Position numbers and translations under genes: made by a program. The notes under the pieces were generated by a model, which saw only the letters and a list, made by a program, of their open reading frames with translations, was not told where the DNA came from and did no database searches. From positions 460,681 through 524,680 of the forward strand of contig CAVOYH010000001.1 of the NCBI GenBank assembly GCA_963700635.1: a DNA stretch of 64,000 nt, written 5' to 3'. Source of the stretch: an uncultured Bacteroidota bacterium. Its GTDB lineage: Bacteria > Bacteroidota > Ignavibacteria > UBA10030 > UBA6906. Below are positions 37,802 to 48,420 of this stretch, piece by piece (positions within the stretch are counted from its first letter, which is position 1; each line of letters starts with the position of its first letter).

Positions 37802-37817
37802 GGGCACGGAGCTTGCA
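37802..37817 (+). promoter_or_regulatory. Sigma54 (-24/-12) promoter of the qrc-like operon
   Basis: GGGCACG-GAGC-TTGCA, i.e. GG-N10-GC closely matching TGGCACG-N4-TTGCW; a GAFTGA activator is encoded at 44731-46095. Confidence 0.75.
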
Positions 37818-37871: not shown

Positions 37872-38105
37872 ATGTTCGAATTGTCGGATCCCCGCACATG
37901 GCAGATCATCACCAACCTGCTGCTCGTAACTGTCGCCCTTGTGGCTGCGACGTACATCGGCATCGGTGTGTACAAACAATCCCGTGCGAAGTCACGACGG
38001 GTATTTCACGCCCATCCGGACCATGACACGCACACGCTGATCCTCCCCGACCTCGGCATTACCATGGCCGATGGTGGTGAAAAGCTTGACGATAAAAAAT
38101 CATGA
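37872..38105 (+). CDS. Small single-TM protein with a His-rich linker and C-terminal LGITMADGGE motif
   Basis: AAGGA ribosome-binding site, ATG 37872, 77 aa, TM IITNLLLVTVALVAATYIGIGVY, then HAHPDHDTH. Confidence 0.75.
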   Translation: MFELSDPRTWQIITNLLLVTVALVAATYIGIGVYKQSRAKSRRVFHAHPDHDTHTLILPDLGITMADGGEKLDDKKS

Positions 38106-38139
38106 ACTCCTATACCGGCGTCCAGTAGAGGCGATCACC

Positions 38140-39114
38140 ATGCGATGTCCATTTCTGCGGGAAGTACGAGTCAAATCCTGCCGCGCCTCGAGCTGCCGAA
38201 AGATGATAGCTCAGGTGTCGGGTCAGCCTGCAATGGAACGATGTGTCACTCCGGCGTATCTGGAATGTCCGGAGGCGAAGCCCCTTCTCGAAAAGAACGT
38301 CACGCTCGACCGGTGTCCGTACCTTCATGAGTCCCTCATGCAGTATTGTAGCGCGGCGTCCCAGACAAAATATATTCCGTACAGCGAAGCAATCCTGTCC
38401 CAGTGTGGTACGGATAGCCACCGTTACTGTTATCTCTTCCTGGCATTCGCACAACCCGACCGCCATAAGGAAATCTCAGCTGTGGACACCGTTCACCCGG
38501 AATTGTCCACACCCGGAAGGGAAGTTGATGTGGATGGGATTGGTGTGCGAACGGATCTTCTGTACACTCCGAACCATATGTGGGCGGATATAGGCGAGGA
38601 CAATACGGTGCATGTCGGCATAGATGCGCTGCTGGCGGGACTGCTCGGAGACGCGGACCAAATTACGTTTGTTACGGTGCGGGGAAAACAACGGCCGACC
38701 GTGGTGTTCAGCGTGAATGGAACCGACCTGCCGGTGATGTTTCCCTACAAAATGTCCATCACTGCAGTGAACACATCCCTGCGCGCACATCCCTCAGACC
38801 TGTTCGCGGATCCATATACCCATGGCTGGCTGTTCGAGGGGACCGAGCTGGAAGTGCCGGCGTCTTCGGAAGAGACGCCAGGACACCCCCTCTTGCTTCC
38901 CGGATCCAGGGCGCCGGTGTGGATGCGCAATGAACTCCGGCACGTTGCGAAAGTGGTTCATGAACTGTCCCATGCGTCTGACAGTTCAGGCGTGGTTCTT
39001 ATGGCTGATGGTGGCAATCCGCAACCCGGCGTCGCACAACACCTGAAACGGAACGAACTGTTGCATCTGTTCAACGATATGTTCTCGCCTCTGGCGGGAT
39101 GGAGGAATGTGTAG
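38140..39114 (+). CDS. Cys-rich tandem-repeat + GcvH-fold protein lacking the lipoylation motif
   Basis: Two CP(F/Y)L...C...C...C repeats, then LLYTPNHMW, VHVGID, AVN..L...P...DPY..GWLF (H-protein hallmarks) with no ExxK hairpin. Confidence 0.8.
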   Translation: MRCPFLREVRVKSCRASSCRKMIAQVSGQPAMERCVTPAYLECPEAKPLLEKNVTLDRCPYLHESLMQYCSAASQTKYIPYSEAILSQCGTDSHRYCYLFLAFAQPDRHKEISAVDTVHPELSTPGREVDVDGIGVRTDLLYTPNHMWADIGEDNTVHVGIDALLAGLLGDADQITFVTVRGKQRPTVVFSVNGTDLPVMFPYKMSITAVNTSLRAHPSDLFADPYTHGWLFEGTELEVPASSEETPGHPLLLPGSRAPVWMRNELRHVAKVVHELSHASDSSGVVLMADGGNPQPGVAQHLKRNELLHLFNDMFSPLAGWRNV

Positions 39115-39701
39115 TGAAACAGCGAGGTGTTATAGTATTTCTCGCAGGAGTGGTCGCGTCGCTTGCGCTGGGCTGGTTCGTTTTTCCGATGGCCCTGTAC
39201 CGTACCGAACTCCAGCCTATCGGGTTCAACCACGTGGTCCATACGGGGGAACAGAACGGGATGACGTGTGACATGTGCCATGAGTTCACCGAAGAAGGTA
39301 GATTCACGGGCATTCCCCGCACGGCAAAATGCGCGGAGTGTCACAGCACAGCGCTCGGAACGACGGAGATCGAGAAGCAACTTATCGAAGAATTTATCAC
39401 CCCGGAGAAGGAGATTCCCTGGAAAGTATATTCCCGGCAGCCGGACAATGCCCATTTTTCGCATGCAAGCCATGTGACCCGGGCAGAGGTGCCGTGCGAG
39501 GAATGCCACGGCCCGCACGGCGCCAGTGCCGAATTGCCTCCCTACCAGCGTAACCGAATCACCGGGTACAGCAGGGATATCTGGGGGAGGAATATCTCCG
39601 GCATTCCGTCAGAACCATGGCAGGGAATGAAAATGGATCGTTGCGTGCGGTGCCATGCCGATCGTAACAGAGTGGATGGTTGTGTTGCCTGTCACAAGTA
39701 A
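39114..39701 (+). CDS. qrcA: Membrane-anchored pentaheme cytochrome c (QrcA-like)
   Basis: N-terminal TM, QPIGFNH..H and five CxxCH motifs (CDMCH, CAECH, CEECH, CVRCH, CVACH); W.VYSRQPD...FSH. GTG start after GGAGG. Confidence 0.8.
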   Translation: MKQRGVIVFLAGVVASLALGWFVFPMALYRTELQPIGFNHVVHTGEQNGMTCDMCHEFTEEGRFTGIPRTAKCAECHSTALGTTEIEKQLIEEFITPEKEIPWKVYSRQPDNAHFSHASHVTRAEVPCEECHGPHGASAELPPYQRNRITGYSRDIWGRNISGIPSEPWQGMKMDRCVRCHADRNRVDGCVACHK

Positions 39702-39713
39702 TCGAAAGACACA

Positions 39714-41864
39714 ATGAAACTCACGCGGAGAGATGTTCTACGTTTGGCCGGAGGTTCGGTAGTCGGGGCCATGTTTACGCCTGTACCCTGGAAGTTGCTG
39801 GATGACAGCTCCATATGGACGCAGAACTGGTCGCTGGTGCCGCCTCTTCCGCGGGGCCCCATGAGCACCCGCTATTCCCACTGCAATCTATGTCCGGCCG
39901 GCTGCTCGCTCAAGGCCCATTGTGTCAACGGCATACCAGTACGTCTGGCGGGTGTTCCGAACGGTGTTCTGAAAAACGGTACGTTGTGTGCCGTGGGGCT
40001 TGCCGGTCATCATGTGGCGTACCACCCGCTGAGGTTGTCCGGGCCCCATACATTCACGGGGAAAGCCGACGGCAGTTTTCTACTGCCCGTTACCATAGAT
40101 ACCCTCGTGGCAAATCTGGTTCCAAAATACCGCCGCGCGATGTCTTCCTCGTCTGCCGGTGTCGTCGCGGTCCTTGACCAACGCCCCGGCCGGGCCATGT
40201 CGCGCAGATATCAGGAGTTTCTGAGCGCATTCCCCGGGAGTATGTACATCGTCCCGCCTTCGGGTGAGGATGGTATGCTCCGCACCATGCAGGGGCTTTC
40301 CACTGAACCGTGCGCATCCCTGGGGTTTGATTTTGAGCACTCCCGTACCATACTCAGTATCGGTGCACCACTTCTGGACGGATGGGGCGTCCCCGAGCGG
40401 ATGCAGGCGCTGTTTGCGGACCAAACGTCTTCGGGCAGAACCCTTATTCAGGTCGAAAGTTCACAGTCCAGAACCGCACGCGCTGCGGCGATCTGGCTGC
40501 CGGTCGTCCCTGGAGCGGAAGCGGCACTGGTCTTGAGTCTGGCCAACGTTATCGTCAGAGAGGGACTCTATCCCAAAGAGGTTGAGCGTACGATAATAGA
40601 CTTCTCCAGGTACCGGGACCTGGTATTACGATATCATCCTCATCCGGTCTCTTCCCTTGCCGGTGTGAGTCCGGGCGCGATTGTCGAAACAGCCCGGGCT
40701 ATTGCTTCCTCCCCCTCGATTGTGATCGCCGGGGCCGATCCTGCCGGAGGCCCCATGGCGCAAGCGACAGAGATCCTTGTAGCCGGATTGAATCTGCTTC
40801 TCGGAAATCCTGGAAGGAAAGGTGGCATTGTCTATCGCCGTGAAACGCCGGACGCATCTGCCAGCGGCGTGCCGGAGATCGCCCTTCACCAGATTCCAGA
40901 CCACTCGATCGAACTCCTGATTATGGACGGAGCAGAAGCCGGCCAGACTTTCCCGTCGTCATTGTTAAAACGGAAGATGGTGCGTGATGGCGGGACGGTG
41001 GTGCTTCTCTCCCCGCATCTGTCACCACGCTCCGCATCGGCGGATTATCTGGTCTCCACACCCGCGCCCTTTGAATCCTGGGACGAAACCCCAGCGTCCC
41101 CGGGGTCCCCGGTTGCGTCTTTCGGCGTTTCGATGCCGCTGATGGCTCCGCGGACGAGCAGTGTGGAGGCAATAAGTTTTCTCTCTCTGCTTTCCAGTGC
41201 AATCGGCCATGTTTCAGAGGGGGCAGGTTCGCTGGAGCAGTTGCTCCGCCGGAAGGCAGATGCCATTACGGCCGCTGGCCGGGGTATGGCGTACCCGCCG
41301 GACGGATCCGGTGGCACCCCCGTCTCTTCATTTGCTGATGCGGAGGCACTGTGGGAAATCCTCAAAGAGGGCGGAAACTGGGTGGATGAACCCGCTCCTC
41401 CGGCAAAACGCGGACAGTTCAAGATTCTCGGGTCTCTGACCGACGACACCCTTACCTCCGCCGCGCATCTGCACCAGCCGGAGGGGGGGTCCATCACGTT
41501 GACACCCTTTGGAGTGCGCGCCGCCCTTGCCAGTGGCGCGGTGTCTCCGATTCTCAGCAAAATTTTCCAGGAATCAGATCTCCGCAATAGCGGCGGCACT
41601 GTGCTGATAAACCCGGCGACGGCGTCACAGTTCGGGTTGCTGGACGGGGACCGTGCCGCGATCCGGACCAGGAACGGAAGTATGCGTGTGCGTGTGTTGC
41701 TGGATCCCGCCGTCAGACCAAACATGCTCCATGCCGCAGTAGGTCCATTGCCGAATGGAACCCCCGACGCCGACGAATTAACTGGAGAGGGTGTGCTGGC
41801 GCTCTGTGTCGTACAGAACGACGGGACCTGGCGTTTCACTGATGTGACGATTGAGAAGGCTTAA
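39714..41864 (+). CDS. qrcB: Tat-exported molybdopterin-oxidoreductase-fold subunit (QrcB-like)
   Basis: Tat signal TRRDVLR, TPVPWKLLDDSSIWTQNW, CNLCPAGC...C and a C-terminal molybdopterin-dinucleotide-binding-like domain (INPATA..GL.DGD). Confidence 0.75.
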   Translation: MKLTRRDVLRLAGGSVVGAMFTPVPWKLLDDSSIWTQNWSLVPPLPRGPMSTRYSHCNLCPAGCSLKAHCVNGIPVRLAGVPNGVLKNGTLCAVGLAGHHVAYHPLRLSGPHTFTGKADGSFLLPVTIDTLVANLVPKYRRAMSSSSAGVVAVLDQRPGRAMSRRYQEFLSAFPGSMYIVPPSGEDGMLRTMQGLSTEPCASLGFDFEHSRTILSIGAPLLDGWGVPERMQALFADQTSSGRTLIQVESSQSRTARAAAIWLPVVPGAEAALVLSLANVIVREGLYPKEVERTIIDFSRYRDLVLRYHPHPVSSLAGVSPGAIVETARAIASSPSIVIAGADPAGGPMAQATEILVAGLNLLLGNPGRKGGIVYRRETPDASASGVPEIALHQIPDHSIELLIMDGAEAGQTFPSSLLKRKMVRDGGTVVLLSPHLSPRSASADYLVSTPAPFESWDETPASPGSPVASFGVSMPLMAPRTSSVEAISFLSLLSSAIGHVSEGAGSLEQLLRRKADAITAAGRGMAYPPDGSGGTPVSSFADAEALWEILKEGGNWVDEPAPPAKRGQFKILGSLTDDTLTSAAHLHQPEGGSITLTPFGVRAALASGAVSPILSKIFQESDLRNSGGTVLINPATASQFGLLDGDRAAIRTRNGSMRVRVLLDPAVRPNMLHAAVGPLPNGTPDADELTGEGVLALCVVQNDGTWRFTDVTIEKA

Positions 41865-41868
41865 CAGT

Positions 41869-42618
41869 ATGGAACACGGAGCAGTAAAGAAGTCGCGGTA
41901 CGGAATGCTTATCGACCTTGACCGCTGTAATGGGTGCGGGGCGTGTATGATTGCCTGTGCTGTGGAAAACAATGTAGCCCCTGCCGAAAACAAAGCAACC
42001 GCGCGCACCGGTGTCACCTGGCTGCGCGTCGCCCCTATGACCAACGGGGCGGAATTTCCTGCGACGGACACCGTGTACGTGCCGATGCCCTGCCAGCAAT
42101 GCGAAAAGGACACTCCCTGTGTGGCAGTGTGCCCCCAGAATGCTGTTGACCTCGATCCGGTAACCGGGATAGTCGGACAGGTGCCGCAACGTTGCCTCGG
42201 CTGCCGGTATTGTATGACGGCATGTCCCTATCATGCACGGTACTTCAACTGGTGGGATCCGCGATGGCCGGAAGGGATGGAACAAACCCTGAACCCCGAT
42301 GTGGCTCCCCGCATGCGGGGTGTGGTGGAGAAATGTAATTTCTGCCATGGCAGGTTACATGCAGCGCGTGCCAAGGCTGCAGCGGACGGGCGAGCGGAGA
42401 TCGCGGCGACAGACTATGTGCCCGCGTGTGTAGAAGCCTGCCCGGGCAAAGCGATCAGCTTTGGAGATCTGGATGATGCCTCGGGTGAATTGGCTCATGC
42501 CATCAGGCATCCCCACGTATTCCGCTTTCTCGTAAAACTCGGGACGGAACCGAAAGTGTACTATCGCTCCTCCAAACAGTGGGTGCGGGACAAAGTGGCA
42601 TCGTTACAAACGGTCTGA
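41869..42618 (+). CDS. qrcC: 4Fe-4S dicluster subunit (QrcC/NrfC-like)
   Basis: CNGCGACMIAC, CQQC...PCVAVCP, CLGCRYCMTACPY and KCNFC...PACVEACP. Confidence 0.85.
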   Translation: MEHGAVKKSRYGMLIDLDRCNGCGACMIACAVENNVAPAENKATARTGVTWLRVAPMTNGAEFPATDTVYVPMPCQQCEKDTPCVAVCPQNAVDLDPVTGIVGQVPQRCLGCRYCMTACPYHARYFNWWDPRWPEGMEQTLNPDVAPRMRGVVEKCNFCHGRLHAARAKAAADGRAEIAATDYVPACVEACPGKAISFGDLDDASGELAHAIRHPHVFRFLVKLGTEPKVYYRSSKQWVRDKVASLQTV

Positions 42619-42641
42619 CGACGACAAATAGGAGTTGCCTC

Positions 42642-43874
42642 ATGGATAAGCAGTTCATACCGCGCGGTCTGCGGCGCACCACGTTTGGAAAGTTTTTGAT
42701 CTGGCTTGTTCCCTGGATTTTGCTCCTCGGATTCGGGCTCTATGCGATTTATCTCTGTCTGGCCGAAGGGCTGTTTCACACCAATATGGACAACCGTTTC
42801 GCGTTCGGACTCTGGATCTACCTTGATCTGACGATCATCGCCCTGGGCGCAGGAGCCTTTTTCACCGGGTTTCTTCTGTATATTCTGCGGCGTGAGGAAC
42901 TCCGGGCTGTCATTAACAGTGCGGTGGTGCTCGGGCTTATTTGTTACAGCGGCGCCGTTGCCGTTCTTATGGTGGATGTGGGTCAGCCCCTCAGGGCCTG
43001 GTTTACGTTCTGGCACCCGAACACTCATTCCATGCTGACCGAGGTGACCTTCTGTCTGACGTGTTACCTCACGGTGCTTCTGATCGAGTATCTTCCGGTT
43101 GTGCTCAAGAACCGGAAGCTCCGGCAGATTCCCCGCTTTCTGGTCTTTGAGTTTCAACTCCATAAAGTTATGCCTGTTCTTGCCGGCGTAGGCGCGTTTC
43201 TTTCCTTTTTCCATCAGGGCTCATTGGGCGGGTTGTATGGCGTCTTGCAGGGAAGACCGTTTGCCTATCGCGAAGCCCTGGGAATCTGGCCTTCCACGTT
43301 CTACCTTTTTGTCCTTTCCGCCGCAGCCGCAGGTCCAAGCTTTGTGCTCATTACTACCTGGCTGGTCCAGCGGATATCGGGGAAGACGCTCGTCAAACCG
43401 GAGGTCTTCCAGTTGTTGGGAAAAGTGTCGGGCATGCTTCTTATCGTCTACATCTTCGCGAAGGCCATCGATACATTCGTCTGGATCAACTATACATCAC
43501 CAAGCGCAGGTTTTGCCGCATTTGCCTTCTACCAGGAAGGTTCGTTCGGTACGTGGATTCTTGTCCTCGAGATTGTCTTTCTCGGACTCATTCCGGCAGT
43601 GATGTTGTTGAACAGGAAGATGCGTGGCAGACCGGCCGTGCTGGTCAGTGCGGCATTTCTGGCCTGCTGCGGGGTCATGCTGAACAGATTTGTTTTGACG
43701 ATACAAACGCTCGCGCTTCCCACGCTTCCGTTCGACACGGTCCTTAGTTATGCTCCGAGTTGGCAGGAGGTGGCCGCCTTCCTTGCGGTCGTCGCGTACG
43801 GGGTGCTGCTCTACTCTTTGTCATACCGGTACCTGACATTGTTCCCGCAGGAAAAAGATATCAGACAACATTGA
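42642..43874 (+). CDS. qrcD: NrfD/PsrC-family quinone-interacting membrane subunit (QrcD-like)
   Basis: TNMDNRFAFGLWI..DL..IALGAGAFFTG, DVGQPLRAWF.FWHPN.HSMLTEV and FFHQGSLGG; about 10 TMs. Confidence 0.85.
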   Translation: MDKQFIPRGLRRTTFGKFLIWLVPWILLLGFGLYAIYLCLAEGLFHTNMDNRFAFGLWIYLDLTIIALGAGAFFTGFLLYILRREELRAVINSAVVLGLICYSGAVAVLMVDVGQPLRAWFTFWHPNTHSMLTEVTFCLTCYLTVLLIEYLPVVLKNRKLRQIPRFLVFEFQLHKVMPVLAGVGAFLSFFHQGSLGGLYGVLQGRPFAYREALGIWPSTFYLFVLSAAAAGPSFVLITTWLVQRISGKTLVKPEVFQLLGKVSGMLLIVYIFAKAIDTFVWINYTSPSAGFAAFAFYQEGSFGTWILVLEIVFLGLIPAVMLLNRKMRGRPAVLVSAAFLACCGVMLNRFVLTIQTLALPTLPFDTVLSYAPSWQEVAAFLAVVAYGVLLYSLSYRYLTLFPQEKDIRQH

Positions 43875-43886
43875 TGGAGGTATATC

Positions 43887-44720
43887 GTGTTTCCATGGAT
43901 CTATGAATTCCGCTGGAGTCTCGGGCATCTTCTGTTTCTGGGAGTGTTCTTCGCCGTTGCCGGTGTTGTGGTCTCCACCCTGGTGCTCGCGCTGCGCAGA
44001 GCACAGAAGTCCATGGCGGACGGGCGTCACGAAGTGCTTCAATGGAAGACGGAGTTCGAAGACCTGCCTCTGGCCAGCCGGGCATGCAGGCATCAGCTTA
44101 CAGGAGAAATGAAAGAGCGCACGTGCCACCACGAATTTGACTGTGCCACCTGCGCGACCCATTCCAGGCTGCTCATGCTCAATACTCCGGCACTATGTAC
44201 TGCTGTCCCCGGGGAAGACCTTTTTGGGCTGGCTATGCCAATGGACCGGTACTATCACCGGGGGCATACCTGGGTGAAACCCGAAGAAGATGGAACGTAC
44301 ACGATAGGGCTTGATGCGTTTGGTACCCGGATGATCGGTGTTCCCGATGCTGTTGATCTTCCGGACGTGGGGACCAGACTGAGAGCAAATGGTACCGGCT
44401 GGAAGATGCGCAAGCGTGGTTCTTTATTGCGTGTACTGGCGGCCGTTGATGGGGTCGTTGTGGAACAGGGTGGACCGCAAAAAGGGTGGTATGTGCGGAT
44501 TCGTCCGGAAGGGTCCGAACCGCAATTCCGTCATCTCCTGCGGGGAGAAGAAATCCGGCCCTGGCTGATGCGCGAACTGGAGAGGCTTCAATTTGCCCTT
44601 CCTGCTGACGGCATTGGCATGAGTCTGGCAGATGGCGGCGAGCTCATGCCGGATGCGTGGAAACATGCGCCGGAAGTCGACTGGGAAGGCGTCTGGGGCG
44701 CAATGCTCCTCCAGGCGTAA
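43887..44720 (+). CDS. Membrane-anchored 4-Cys + GcvH-fold protein lacking a canonical lipoylation motif
   Basis: N-terminal TM; CRHQLTG......CHHEFDCATC; YYHRGHTWV, TIGLDAF, VDLP.VG, DG.VV and GW; C-terminal GMSLADGGE. Confidence 0.8.
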   Translation: MFPWIYEFRWSLGHLLFLGVFFAVAGVVVSTLVLALRRAQKSMADGRHEVLQWKTEFEDLPLASRACRHQLTGEMKERTCHHEFDCATCATHSRLLMLNTPALCTAVPGEDLFGLAMPMDRYYHRGHTWVKPEEDGTYTIGLDAFGTRMIGVPDAVDLPDVGTRLRANGTGWKMRKRGSLLRVLAAVDGVVVEQGGPQKGWYVRIRPEGSEPQFRHLLRGEEIRPWLMRELERLQFALPADGIGMSLADGGELMPDAWKHAPEVDWEGVWGAMLLQA

Positions 44721-44730
44721 ACCGTCCGGA

Positions 44731-46095
44731 TCATGGCCGCGGGAGATTGTGCTTTTTAAGCCGGTCATACAGAGTTGACCGATCAATGCCGAGGATTCCC
44801 GCGGCCTCAGAAATGTTCCCCCTGGTACGTTTGAGCGTAGCTGTAATGATGTGGTTCTCGGCCTGTTCAAGTGTCATGTCTGCCGGGAGACTCCACTCCT
44901 TATCATCCTGAACCCGCGTGGACCCGATAAACCCGCAGTCCTCCTCAGTGATGACCTTCGTTCTTGTTGTTACGATAGCCCGCTCGATCGCATTTTCGAG
45001 TTCCCGGACATTTCCCGGCCAGTCGTAGTTCATCAGGACTCGCAGTGCGCCCTCTGAGATAGCGGTGACCTCTTTGCCGAGTTCGTGCACAAGCCGTTCG
45101 ATGAATGTTTCGACAAGCAGGGGAATGTCTTCCCTCCGCTCGCGGAGCGGGGGAATGTTGATGCTGATGACGTTGAGCCGGTAGAACAGATCATCGCGGA
45201 ATGTGCCTTCCCGCACCGAACGTTCGAGATCGACATTGGTTGCGGCAATAACCCGGACGTCCACGTGCAGTTCTTCCGTCCCGCCCACCCTGTAGAATGT
45301 CCTTTCCTGAAGAATACGCAACAGATCCATCTGCAGCTTCGGCGAGATATCCCCGATCTCATCAAGGAAGATCGTCCCGCCGTGTGCCATCTCGAATTTT
45401 CCCTTCCGGTTCGCCACCGCTCCGGTGAACGCCCCCTTCTCGTGGCCAAAGAGTTCTGATTCGAGGAGTGTTTCTGCGAGCGCGGCACAGGAGACTCCTA
45501 TAAACGGCTTGTTTGCGCGGTCCCCGGAATAGTGGATGGCGCGGGCAACAAGTTCCTTCCCGGTGCCACTTTCTCCCTGTATGAGTACCGTGCTGCGCAG
45601 ACTTGCCACGTCGCGCACAAGCTCGAAGAGTTTCATCATTGCCGGGCTTTTGCTGATGATATCGTGCAGCTGGTACTGCTTTGTGAGCTTTTTGCGCAGG
45701 ATAAGATTTTCCCGTTGCAGGTTTTTCACCTTGATGATGCGCCTGACAAGCAGCGAGATTTCTTCGGGGTTACAGGGTTTGACGATATACTCCTGTGCTC
45801 CCTCCTTCATTGCGGTGATTGCGGTATCGACGGTCGCGTACGCCGTCACGATGATGATGGGCGCGTCCGGATGGAGCTTGCGGACTTCCATCATGGTTTC
45901 AATCCCATCGATACCACCCGGCATCTTAAGATCCACGAAATAGATTGCGTAGTCGACGGATCGTGCCTTTTGGAGGGCCTCTGCTCCTGATGTTGCGGTT
46001 TCCACCGTATATCCATCTTCACGGAGCCAGGCAGCGAGGGATTCGCGCATCACTTCTTCATCATCGACGACAAGAATCGGCCAGTGTGTTGTCAT
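44731..46095 (-). CDS. Sigma54-dependent response regulator (NtrC/AtoC-like)
   Basis: Receiver domain (VDD, DLKMP), GESGTGKE, ELFGHEKGAFTGA, WPGNVREL and a Fis-type HTH. Confidence 0.95.
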   Translation of the reverse strand: MTTHWPILVVDDEEVMRESLAAWLREDGYTVETATSGAEALQKARSVDYAIYFVDLKMPGGIDGIETMMEVRKLHPDAPIIIVTAYATVDTAITAMKEGAQEYIVKPCNPEEISLLVRRIIKVKNLQRENLILRKKLTKQYQLHDIISKSPAMMKLFELVRDVASLRSTVLIQGESGTGKELVARAIHYSGDRANKPFIGVSCAALAETLLESELFGHEKGAFTGAVANRKGKFEMAHGGTIFLDEIGDISPKLQMDLLRILQERTFYRVGGTEELHVDVRVIAATNVDLERSVREGTFRDDLFYRLNVISINIPPLRERREDIPLLVETFIERLVHELGKEVTAISEGALRVLMNYDWPGNVRELENAIERAIVTTRTKVITEEDCGFIGSTRVQDDKEWSLPADMTLEQAENHIITATLKRTRGNISEAAGILGIDRSTLYDRLKKHNLPRP

Positions 46096-46673
46096 AGAGT
46101 CTTTCGTGCGGCATCCGAACGGTCGTCCGTCAGCCGCATATGTGGTTTTCGTTCTTCAAACAGCGTGGCACAGGTTGCGCAGAGGTCCGGCCCCTTCGCG
46201 TCCACGTGCCGTACAGTATTGGAAAGAGACATGGGGCATCTGCTATCGGTGCAATGTATCAACCCGAAGGTATGGCCGATCTCATGGACGGCCTCCTTGA
46301 CAGCCCGCGATTGCAGAAGTCCGGCATCAGGGGGGAGTCCGTAGAATTCCTGCCTGAGGCGCGCCAGCGAAATCGCAGCTGTCGGGCCGTTGAGTTGGGC
46401 CTGGCCCAGAACAAAACTCAGCATGGGAATAAAGAGATCCCTTTCGGTGACACCCAGTACCCTGATGGTGGAACCGGACACCTGCTCCAGGAGATCGCGC
46501 AGGATCAGCACGGAGCTGTACTGGCCCCGTTGTGCATCGTACGCAAACGAAGGATCCGGGAGTGCGGGAAGCACACGCACAGGAAACTGGAATGCGCGTT
46601 GAAGGCCGCGTGTCACGGAATCAAGAATGGTATCTTCCACGGATCCCAACGCAGCCAGGACGATGGCGTTCAT
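46092..46673 (-). CDS. Archaemetzincin-family zinc metalloprotease (peptidase M54)
   Basis: RGQY.S, DLFIP.L.FV.G.A and KEAVHEIGHTFGLIHC....C.MS.S......D.K...LC..C (HExxHxxGxxH plus Cys4). Real start ATG 46673. Confidence 0.9.
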   Translation of the reverse strand: MNAIVLAALGSVEDTILDSVTRGLQRAFQFPVRVLPALPDPSFAYDAQRGQYSSVLILRDLLEQVSGSTIRVLGVTERDLFIPMLSFVLGQAQLNGPTAAISLARLRQEFYGLPPDAGLLQSRAVKEAVHEIGHTFGLIHCTDSRCPMSLSNTVRHVDAKGPDLCATCATLFEERKPHMRLTDDRSDAARKTL

Positions 46674-48298
46674 CCCGTATCGCTCACGGGAGCCGCCGTT
46701 TCCTCTTCCATGATCGGCATGGTTACCCGGAATGTGGTGCCTTCTCCGACCTTCGTGTTCACGTCGATGTCCCCCCCATGCGAGCGTACAATGCCGTACA
46801 CGACGGCCAGTCCAAGCCCGACTCCTTTTCCCTCTCCCTTTGTGGTGAAAAACGGCGAAAAGAGATTTGCCATGTGTTCGGGCTGGATTCCGTCGCCGGA
46901 ATCGTGCACTTCGAGGACGAGTGATTTTCCGGAAGTCGAAAGATTTGTCGTAATGCGTACACGTGCATCCGGGTGCCCCTGGGCAGCCTCCGCGCCGTTC
47001 ATCACCAGGTTGATCAACACCTGCTGCATCTGTGACGCGTCGCAATGAATGTTGGGAAGCCGGTCATCAAGCTGCAGGTCCATCTCGACGTTCATCAGTT
47101 TTAGCTTATGCCCGATCAGCGTTACCGTTGTCGAGACAACCGAGTTGAAATTGACATTCGCCCGCTGGTGCGGTTTGGAGCGGCGCGAGAATGAGAGGAG
47201 ATCCTGCACGATTCTGCCTACCCGTGTGGTCTCGCTGACGACCTGCGCAAGATACTTGCGGAATTCACCCAGCCGTGGTGGGGGGATGCCGTCATCCTTG
47301 ACAATCCGCTGCATCAGCATGGAAAGATTCAACACTCCGGAGAGTGGGTTGTTGATTTCGTGTGCGACGCTGGCGGAAAGCTGGCCGAGGGAAGCCAGAC
47401 GGTCGCTGTGCAGCAGTTTCTGGTGCGCAGCCTTAAGTTGCTCGGTCCGCTCTTCAACTTTGATCTCAAGGTTCTGGGCCAGGCTGTTGAGTTGCTCAAT
47501 GGCTGCCTTCAGCCGGAGTCGCATGATGTCGAATGACCTGGCAAGTTCCCCGAGTTCTTCGCTTGAACTGATCGTCACCTGCGTGTCCAGATTCATTGCG
47601 CTCACGGCCCGCGTGGCCTCAATCAACTGACGGATGGGTGCCACAACATACCGGCGGGTGAAGACCACGATGAACAGGACCAGCGATACGGACAGTGCAA
47701 AGGAGATGAGCAGGACGCGCGTCTGGATTGCGATGATCTCTTTGTCAACGGCCGACAGATCCAGTGCAACGTCGATGACACCGAGGACATTCATTGATGC
47801 GGGATGCGCATGGCAGCCCGCATTGCTGCACGCGGGTTCGTTATAGACCGGTGTGACGATCCCCAGGGTCCGTTTTCCCGTCGCGTCACGGAATACGCGG
47901 GCGCGTGACGGCACATCAACCTTGACCAGCGGGCGGTCCGTGGCATGGCAGATGGAACATGCCTCCGCGTCCTTGTCGACACTTCCGGAATCACCGGACG
48001 CGGTTGAGAACATCACGCGGCCCTCTTTGTTGTAGATCCGGATCCGGTTGATCCCCTGTTTGAGGGCGATGGTTTGCATGATTTCGTACGCCGATTCGCG
48101 CTGGTCGGCCAGCATGGCATGCCACGTGGCACTCGCAATACTCCCGGAAAGCTGGTCCGCCCCAATTATCATCGTATCCAGAAGTTGTGACTCCTGCGAT
48201 TTCATGTGCACATATCCCGCGGCCAACCCTACGAGCGTCACCAGGAGGAGCAGCGGAATCATCAACTGAAGCCATAACTTTCGTGGTAGAAAATGCAT
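46670..48298 (-). CDS. Sensor histidine kinase with periplasmic heme-c motifs, HAMP, HisKA and HATPase
   Basis: Two TMs flanking CSICH and CSNAGCH; VAHEINNPL, QVLINLVMN, DSGDGI and FFTTK...GVGLGL. Confidence 0.92.
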   Translation of the reverse strand: MHFLPRKLWLQLMIPLLLLVTLVGLAAGYVHMKSQESQLLDTMIIGADQLSGSIASATWHAMLADQRESAYEIMQTIALKQGINRIRIYNKEGRVMFSTASGDSGSVDKDAEACSICHATDRPLVKVDVPSRARVFRDATGKRTLGIVTPVYNEPACSNAGCHAHPASMNVLGVIDVALDLSAVDKEIIAIQTRVLLISFALSVSLVLFIVVFTRRYVVAPIRQLIEATRAVSAMNLDTQVTISSSEELGELARSFDIMRLRLKAAIEQLNSLAQNLEIKVEERTEQLKAAHQKLLHSDRLASLGQLSASVAHEINNPLSGVLNLSMLMQRIVKDDGIPPPRLGEFRKYLAQVVSETTRVGRIVQDLLSFSRRSKPHQRANVNFNSVVSTTVTLIGHKLKLMNVEMDLQLDDRLPNIHCDASQMQQVLINLVMNGAEAAQGHPDARVRITTNLSTSGKSLVLEVHDSGDGIQPEHMANLFSPFFTTKGEGKGVGLGLAVVYGIVRSHGGDIDVNTKVGEGTTFRVTMPIMEEETAAPVSDTG

Positions 48299-48420
48299 GG
48301 AGAGCGACCTCAGGAGGCGGGAAGAGTTATTATCTAAAAGGAATGGAACGTTCTGCGAAACCGGCTTTTCTCTACACAATGTACGGAAGAGGTTTTGGAT
48401 ATTCAACTTCAATCGGGTTC

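Follow-up and report, generated by a model that had tools for sequence, protein, structure and literature searches.

In a 64,000-nucleotide (nt) stretch of the genome of an uncultured Bacteroidota bacterium, hereafter the window, the peptide (M/L)ADGG recurs in three proteins of one operon: a membrane micro-protein of 77 amino acids (aa) and two larger proteins, GcvH-like 1 and GcvH-like 2, that are predicted to contain the fold of the glycine cleavage H-protein. The operon has the order micro-gcvH1-qrcABCD-gcvH2, is of sigma-54 type with the micro-protein gene first, and carries a cassette of the Qrc quinone-reductase type. The recurrence of the motif is real and chance is excluded as its cause. 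We tentatively read the (M/L)ADGG loop as a shared docking element and the micro-protein as a membrane-tethered adaptor or competitor, an explanation to which we give somewhat less than an even chance. Below we describe the motif, the proteins that carry it and their genomic context, and weigh this reading against its alternatives.

Results

Three copies of one motif

All three peptides were found in frame and on the + strand, in agreement with the original prediction that differently built proteins of the operon share them. In the micro-protein the peptide is LGITMADGGEKL (residues 61-72, positions 38052-38087), and five residues (DDKKS) follow it; 30 residues follow the loop of GcvH-like 1 and 23 that of GcvH-like 2 (Table 1). 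The previously assigned positions of the GcvH-like 1 peptide were exact; those of the micro-protein peptide ended at 38081, that is at E70, and those of the GcvH-like 2 peptide 6 nt short. The codons of A-D-G-G differ between the three genes as had been claimed (GCC GAT GGT GGT, GCT GAT GGT GGC and GCA GAT GGC GGC). Among homologs every motif codon with synonymous options varies (Ala, Asp, both Gly and the first-position Leu of GcvH-like 2), Met being always ATG. Since synonymous codon choice varies while the residues are kept, selection acts on the protein, and the predicted conservation at protein level holds.

Over the whole genome, translated as six-frame open reading frames (ORFs) of at least 60 aa, [ML]ADGG occurs 24 times in 4,802,019 residues. 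The expectation is about 0.011 for the operon's approximately 2,280 residues, where three copies were seen, and about 4e-4 for the micro-protein by itself; the two copies located in paralogs are not independent of each other. A fortuitous recurrence of a common pentapeptide could appeal to the shortness of the motif and to its presence in unrelated proteins of the genome, including five sigma-54 activators with FELADGG. Against it stand the low expectation, the conservation of the motif in all three families and a profile-profile E-value of 3e-5 between the tails of the micro-protein and of GcvH-like 2, so that the probability left to it is negligible.

The activators just mentioned carry the same pentapeptide in their AAA+ segment FE-x-A-D-G-G-T, which in the folded ATPase is part of the strand leading to Walker B. 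The likeness is probably a coincidence, and mimicry of this strand was set aside as an explanation. The cassette-linked sigma-54 regulators (L021-L100) include 40 that match the pattern, 13 of them with FEMADGGT and 7 with FELADGGT; the window's own regulator reads FEMAHGGT (within residues 234-253).

Table 1. Features of the operon and of the adjacent regulatory genes (positions in the window)
Feature	Position	Strand	Basis or remark
sigma-54-type promoter element GGCAC-N5-TTGC	37803..37816	+	69 nt 5' of the micro-protein ATG
micro-protein coding sequence, 77 aa	37872..38105	+	short periplasmic N-terminus, one transmembrane helix, cytoplasmic tail (predicted)
conserved tail peptide D52-x-H54-...-P59-x-L61-G62-x-T64-M65-A66-D67-G68-G69-E70	38025..38081	+	alignments A1, A3 and A4; counts over 149 representatives
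GcvH-like 1 coding sequence, 324 aa	38140..39114	+	soluble; N-terminal part with 8 invariant Cys, predicted GcvH fold, C-terminal extension
GVVLMADGGNP loop, GcvH-like 1 residues 284-294	38989..39021	+	DGG in 74/74 homologs
qrcA-like multiheme cytochrome c	39099..39701	+	NF041781, 213.4 bits, cut-off 180
qrcB-like molybdopterin-family subunit, twin-arginine N-terminus	39714..41864	+	NF041783 best match, 257.8 bits, under cut-off 440
qrcC-like 4Fe-4S subunit	41851..42618	+	NF041782 best match, 345.8 bits, under cut-off 400
qrcD-like NrfD-family membrane subunit	42579..43874	+	NF041784, 575.3 bits, cut-off 570
GcvH-like 2 coding sequence, 277 aa	43887..44720	+	N-terminal transmembrane helix, Cys/His finger, predicted GcvH fold, C-terminal extension
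IGMSLADGGELM loop, GcvH-like 2 residues 243-254	44613..44648	+	LADGG in 48/50 homologs
sigma-54-dependent response regulator (REC, AAA+, HTH_8)	44731..46095	-	Pfam, NCBIfam
archaemetzincin, 193 aa, soluble, HEIGHTFGLIH and four Cys	46092..46673	-	NF033823, 160.1 bits, cut-off 145
sensor histidine kinase, CSICH and CSNAGCH in the segment before HAMP	46670..48412	-	Pfam; motif reading

The micro-protein family

The micro-protein belongs to an unannotated family of single-pass membrane proteins with N-out/C-in orientation, separate and widely conserved. A profile search of 1.84 billion representatives retained 617 at E<=0.001 and 204 at E<=1e-10. The best 150 of the 617 are every one 73-160 aa long, and the motif counts are from the 149 of these 150 that were retrieved, representing clusters at 50% identity. 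DGG is found in 149/149 and MADGG in 145/149, followed by 6-44 variable residues, and the tail consensus D-x-H-x-[FL]-x2-P-x-L-G-x-T-M-A-D-G-G-E is the sole conserved cytoplasmic element. In an alignment of 74 species-level homologs W10, N15, L61, G62, T64, M65, D67, G68 and G69 are invariant, MADGG is kept in 73, and the N-terminus and transmembrane face are conserved as well (W10, T14, N15, L18); hydropathy of the window's protein peaks at residue 16 (2.19). D52 is at least 90% conserved in alignment A3 and H54 at least 90% in A3 and A4; E70 is at least 90% conserved in A3 but present in 55/74 sequences of A4. The linker had been described as His-rich, which does not hold for the family: it is not conserved save for one His, H54.

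The original prediction would have fallen had the motif not been conserved in homologs of the micro-protein, or had the gene been a decayed fragment of a third GcvH-like gene. The motif is conserved more strongly than any other part of the protein in each set of homologs looked at, and the gene, an intact ORF of 73-160 aa in the 149 representatives with a conserved N-terminus and transmembrane face, is not a decayed GcvH fragment. Neither the micro-protein nor the motif was found among Pfam and NCBIfam families; Pfam applied to the 74 micro-proteins gave scattered transmembrane noise only, with at most 7/74 for any one family. A word-indexed protein search returned 23 clusters, all named 'hypothetical', and the ESM Atlas returned 'hypothetical protein' clusters only, at 0.90 or less. 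No fusion of micro-protein and GcvH-like protein occurs among the best 150 of the 617 representatives; the other 467 were not listed and no search was aimed at longer proteins.

Many homologs from Bacteroidota and Terriglobia terminate in another conserved peptide, NI[QHTV]RS[EDV]N (loci L024, L026, L029-L030, L032-L035, L038-L043, L056 and L088), which is absent from the window's protein.

The GcvH-like proteins

The central domain of both GcvH-like proteins is predicted to adopt the barrel-sandwich fold of the H-protein, common to GcvH and GcvH-L. PF01597 (GCV_H, gathering score 22.2) matches GcvH-like 1 with 23.2 bits (E 6.8e-5) and GcvH-like 2 with 33.4 bits (E 4.9e-8). Residues 134-271 of an AlphaFold2 model of GcvH-like 1 (predicted local distance difference test, pLDDT, 86.9) superpose on the pea H-protein 1dxm_A with Z 15.4 and a root-mean-square deviation of 2.1 over 126 aligned residues; Z is 12.5 for 5a35_A (GcvH-L), and Foldseek gave E-values of about 1e-7 and a template modelling (TM) score of 0.8 to the E. 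coli H-protein. This structure-database comparison covered the GcvH-like 1 model, and the fold assignment of GcvH-like 2 is its PF01597 match.

They differ from GcvH in several respects. The lipoyl-lysine is not conserved: in the column set by alignment to the canonical GcvH of the genome (EAVKA; E-x-V-K-A at the hairpin tip) there is no Lys majority in GcvH-like 1 (n=74), and Lys is present in 29/50 GcvH-like 2. Scores for the NCBIfam GcvH equivalog TIGR00527 are 27.9 and 35.3 bits, under the cut-off of 115.85. GcvH-like 1 adds the 8-Cys region, GcvH-like 2 the transmembrane helix and Cys/His finger, and both a C-terminal extension with the DGG loop. The eight invariant Cys of GcvH-like 1 (window 38140-38450) resemble a tandem duplication (CPFL-x-E...C...C...C, twice). 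The finger of GcvH-like 2 is an invariant C-R-H...C-x5-C-x2-C cluster (C67, R68, H69, C80, C86, C89; window 44080-44170) that lies between the transmembrane helix and the H-fold, contains an H-x3-C-x2-C stretch and is followed by a mostly conserved His.

When GcvH-like 2 residues 215-277 were used as query, 274 matches were obtained in proteins of 152-485 aa, and all 120 listed carry PF01597. A likeness of the C-terminal extension to acyl or peptidyl carrier proteins was rejected, as Z-scores of 3.9-4.7 are too low to point beyond a similar arrangement of helices and no Ser occupies the attachment position. Two adjacent genes outside the window (contig C4:634301-636345) fuse a REC domain to a GcvH-like domain, one of them with a C-terminal extension without DGG, and three clustered GcvH-like matches were seen in contig C3 of genome G186.

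Relation between the copies

Aligned by hhalign, the profiles of GcvH-like 1 and 2 match over 182 columns covering the fold and the C-terminal extension, loop included (probability 99%, E 6e-18). On this evidence the two are paralogs, and the DGG loop came to both by common descent. The micro-protein profile matches GcvH-like 2 over 26 columns around the motif (E 3e-5, probability 73.5%) and GcvH-like 1 over 12 columns only (probability 6.9%). That GcvH-like 2 arose as a fusion of micro-protein and GcvH-like 1 had been considered on account of a 'SMADGR' after its transmembrane helix, and was rejected since this peptide is not conserved in the GcvH-like 2 alignment.

DGG is present in all 50 GcvH-like 2 homologs. 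The 74 GcvH-like 1 homologs read MADGG in 28 cases, AADGG in 16 and other variants in 30, and a less diverse set of 120 clusters has MADGG in 97 and x-x-DGG in 119. Judged from these alignments the universal core is D-G-G, (M/L)A being strict only in the micro-protein and GcvH-like 2. The number of fixed positions is about 10 in the free peptide of the micro-protein, 5-6 in GcvH-like 2 and 3 in GcvH-like 1, a gradient that would be expected if the folded scaffolds supply part of the binding energy. As is looked for in a docking motif, the peptide is conserved among orthologs while its flanks vary.

Topology and local model confidence

Lys and Arg are more numerous on the C-terminal flank of the transmembrane helix in 74/74 micro-proteins and 49/50 GcvH-like 2 homologs, and hydropathy gave no hydrophobic, transmembrane-like segment in GcvH-like 1. 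By the positive-inside counts and the solubility of GcvH-like 1 all three motifs should thus face the cytoplasm. The GcvH-like 1 model places the motif in a coil between helix 255-277 and helices 298-314, and pLDDT is 67 for the block 281-290 as compared with 84-94 in neighbouring blocks. In the GcvH-like 2 AlphaFold2 model (pLDDT 87.0) the block 241-250 has pLDDT 47, the lowest of the chain. A complex prediction of GcvH-like 1 with tail residues 34-77 of the micro-protein, made with alignments and without controls, scored 0.00, which is neither support nor contrary evidence.

The operon and its distribution

The element GGCAC-N5-TTGC supports the earlier statement that the micro-protein gene is the first transcribed. 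In 16/78 related loci the 250 nt preceding the micro-protein gene contain a strict sigma-54 pattern, against about 0.003 expected per 250 nt, and in 29/78 they contain a looser one, against 0.023. The GcvH-like 1 gene overlaps qrcA, GcvH-like 2 starts 13 nt past qrcD, and no terminator-like site was found between the micro-protein and GcvH-like 1 genes.

An alignment search with GcvH-like 1, restricted to one genome per species, gave 80 loci. By record title these belong to Bacteroidota/Ignavibacteriota/Kryptoniota, Acidobacteriota (Terriglobia, Thermoanaerobaculia, Holophagales, Bryobacterales), KSB1, Eisenbacteria and Myxococcales. In 80/80 the ORF immediately 5' of GcvH-like 1 is a micro-protein homolog; M[AT]DGG is kept in 77, and the other three micro-proteins look frameshifted. 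The order micro, gcvH1, qrcA-D, gcvH2 is found wherever flanks reach, with GcvH-like 2 present in 40/43 loci with long flanks. Among close relatives, 12/41 genomes have the micro-protein at E<=4e-7, and loci L001-L011 run from micro-protein to GcvH-like 1 to qrcA. The micro-protein profile matched 13/301 sampled genomes of the phylum, with GcvH-like 1 directly downstream in 11/12 assessable loci. The exception, L113 (G186:C139), is an orphan homolog with LGVTLPDGGE that adjoins an unrelated gene on the opposite strand, in a genome without full-length GcvH-like 1.

At three loci the micro-gcvH1 pair adjoins regulator, protease and kinase genes and has no qrc genes in its flanks; these genomes, whose completeness is not known, have no QrcD above the cut-off (best 163 bits against 570). 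In two of the three the micro-protein is frameshifted, and one of those two GcvH-like 1 copies reads EGG for DGG.

Kinase, archaemetzincin and regulator

Next to the operon, on the - strand, are the genes of a histidine kinase (HK), an archaemetzincin (peptidase family M54) and a sigma-54-dependent response regulator (RR); the kinase stop overlaps the archaemetzincin start and the archaemetzincin stop the regulator start. The archaemetzincin scores above the family cut-off and has the signature HExxHxxGxxH followed by C-x4-C ... C-x2-C, its translation reading HEIGHTFGLIHCTDSRC...CATC. In the kinase CSICH at residue 152 and CSNAGCH at residue 195 stand ahead of HAMP, and both occur in 12/12 full-length cassette-adjacent homologs, which suggests a heme c-binding periplasmic sensor.

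An ORF with HExxHxxGxxH fills 24/30 gaps between regulator and kinase next to cassettes, in several phyla. An archaemetzincin is present in 40/80 cassette loci and in 26/43 of those with long flanks, and an HK-M54-RR operon was found elsewhere in 5/5 tested genomes whose cassette flanks had none. Among the 41 relatives the HK-M54-RR form occurs in 10/12 genomes with the micro-protein and was seen in 0/29 without it. Of these 29, 21 do have an archaemetzincin and 8 do not; 20 of the 21 were read, all of them RR-M54, G009 being the one not read. G014, a 98% complete genome that carries the cassette, showed the RR-M54 form only. The archaemetzincin is therefore linked to the cassette yet not specific to it.

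Each of the 39 archaemetzincin loci (L119-L157) that were inspected in relatives and in genomes bearing the cassette adjoins a sigma-54 regulator, either as kinase-protease-regulator or as regulator-protease. At one of them, L154 (G333:C2:160217-163723), a soluble GcvH-like protein that has two Cys fingers and LAADGG is encoded after the regulator-archaemetzincin pair, an arrangement seen in a single genome.

Discussion

A proposed shared docking loop

Conservation, gene order, membrane topology, the homology between the tails and the local confidence of the models lead us to infer that the loop binds a partner, and we propose candidates for it. (M/L)ADGG would be the invariant core of a short tail module, borne on the cytoplasmic side by three accessory proteins of the Qrc cassette. 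GcvH-like 1 and 2 may present the module as an exposed loop between the long post-barrel helix and the terminal helices, whereas the micro-protein consists of a transmembrane anchor, a variable linker and a free copy of the loop, most like that of GcvH-like 2. The loop may dock on one common receptor surface, for instance on a GcvH-like fold or on the Qrc membrane subunit where it faces the cytoplasm. The micro-protein would then serve as a membrane-tethered adaptor, or compete for the site that the soluble GcvH-like 1 and the self-anchored GcvH-like 2 use. A peptide that is invariant across phyla, domain-free and placed on a variable linker would need a partner in trans. The strict pairing of the micro-protein with GcvH-like 1, the tight operon, the joint decay at loci that lack qrc genes and the altered motif of the orphan homolog also speak for this reading. 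The original idea of a linear motif read by a partner, with the micro-protein as tethered adaptor or decoy, gains in part from these data, namely from the cytoplasmic position, the invariance in a domain-free tail, the low-confidence loops and the likeness of the tail to that of GcvH-like 2.

Several observations weigh against a docking function. DGG alone is fixed in GcvH-like 1, which would also fit a structural turn before the conserved terminal helices. The low pLDDT of the loop could come from alignment gaps and not from exposure. At locus L055 micro-protein and GcvH-like 1 are both intact and adjoin regulator, protease and kinase genes, in a genome (completeness not known) without QrcD above the cut-off, so that a Qrc surface may not be the receptor. 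Finally the related genomes are kin, and their counts overstate independent support.

Alternative explanations

The main rival to a docking loop has the cytoplasmic archaemetzincin recognise or cleave it. By cutting the three tails the enzyme would link the two-component system to the cassette, with the micro-protein serving as a substrate or decoy tethered at the membrane. We consider this unlikely, though the most serious of the alternatives. The archaemetzincin had been put forward among the candidate readers of the motif, and it stays one: the HK-M54-RR operon co-occurs with the cassette, protease and motifs are predicted to share the cytoplasm, the gap between regulator and kinase is usually filled by such an ORF and the HK-M54-RR form follows the micro-protein among relatives. 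The 21/29 relatives that have an archaemetzincin and no micro-protein, those read pairing it with a sigma-54 regulator, speak against it, as there the enzyme must have another task; so does the cassette carrier G014 with its RR-M54 form. Moreover what follows the loop in the two GcvH-like proteins is conserved and modelled with confidence, unlike a discarded propeptide, and seven residues invariant across phyla are unusually strict for a protease site. Somewhat less probable still is the more specific proposal that heme-sensing kinase, archaemetzincin and sigma-54 regulator form a proteolytic switch acting on the Qrc accessory proteins, with the loop as its natural site.

Next in rank, and about as doubtful as that switch, is a role of the loop in binding a ligand, metal or cofactor or in covalent modification of the Asp, with residues from several chains possibly completing the site. 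D-G-G is absolutely invariant in the micro-protein and both GcvH-like families, and such invariance is more usual in catalytic or ligand-binding loops than in typical docking motifs; D52, H54 and E70 (the last present in 55/74 sequences of A4) could add ligands, and both GcvH-like proteins carry invariant Cys or His clusters as well. However, no ligand-binding family of Pfam or NCBIfam matched, the lipoyl-lysine of true H-proteins is not conserved, and we know of no cofactor-attachment motif that fits. A tag of the ubiquitin-like or Pup type with C-terminal GG(E) does not fit the encoded chains, as 6-44 residues follow DGG in the 149 micro-proteins and 30 and 23 conserved residues in the GcvH-like proteins. 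It is more improbable again that there is no shared reader, DGG being an inherited structural turn and the micro-protein tail the relic of an internal deletion in a GcvH-like 2-type gene, kept for instance for helix-helix packing in the membrane. This would account for the common descent of the loop in both GcvH-like proteins, for the restriction to DGG in GcvH-like 1 and for the weak match of the micro-protein profile to the transmembrane part and tail of GcvH-like 2. A relic would not retain 7-10 invariant residues amid freely varying flanks over 149 clusters at 50% identity from several phyla, the micro-protein tail has no domain that needs stabilisation, and the varying codons of Ala, Asp and both Gly show purifying selection on the peptide.

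Comparison with described systems

The cassette agrees with the menaquinone reductase QrcABCD of sulfate-reducing Desulfobacterota in its four subunit types and in their order. QrcA and QrcD of the window exceed their NCBIfam equivalog cut-offs, whereas QrcB and QrcC, for each of which the Qrc family is the best match, fall below. The cassette differs in its three extra genes and in its occurrence in Bacteroidota/Ignavibacteriota, Acidobacteriota and other phyla. In the searched part of the literature QrcABCD is described as a four-subunit complex of Desulfobacterota (PMC13059093); term searches of the main text of PMC13059093 and PMC6303296 found nothing on other phyla or extra subunits, and 'cytoplasmic subunit' and 'additional subunit' do not occur in that of PMC13059093. 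A literature search, again of main texts, found nothing relevant on an MADGG motif, on QrcABCD with glycine cleavage or on GcvH-like proteins with NrfD.

Archaemetzincins have been described as a family whose biological role is little known (PMC3427221, in the part consulted), and the consulted part of PMC4681839 reports activity on casein and synthetic substrates only, with no natural substrate. The window gene differs from described archaemetzincins in that a sensor kinase gene and a sigma-54 regulator gene flank it, and no paper linking archaemetzincin with sigma-54 was found in the literature search.

With regard to its size the micro-protein may be compared with other small proteins of bacterial membranes. 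CydX, MgrB and SafA are small single-pass membrane proteins encoded with membrane complexes or two-component regulons. Like these, the micro-protein has fewer than 100 aa and one transmembrane helix and is co-transcribed with its presumed target system, here as the first gene behind a sigma-54-type promoter and adjoining its likely regulator. It is not known to be related to them in sequence, and what is conserved in it is a cytoplasmic peptide shared with two larger proteins of its own operon.

Conclusions

The finding is a lead rather than a mechanism. It delineates a large family of small membrane proteins without current annotation (617 representatives at E<=0.001), and the motif provides a handle of 7-10 residues for mutagenesis. 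The co-occurrence of HK-M54-RR with the micro-protein yields a concrete candidate substrate for M54, natural substrates of which we did not find described; if the proteolytic switch were true, these would be the first physiological substrates of the family. If a shared docking or processing site is confirmed, three new components would be defined for a Qrc-type quinone reductase, a complex known until now from sulfate reducers as an enzyme of four subunits, whereas the cassette is widespread in Bacteroidota/Ignavibacteriota and Acidobacteriota.

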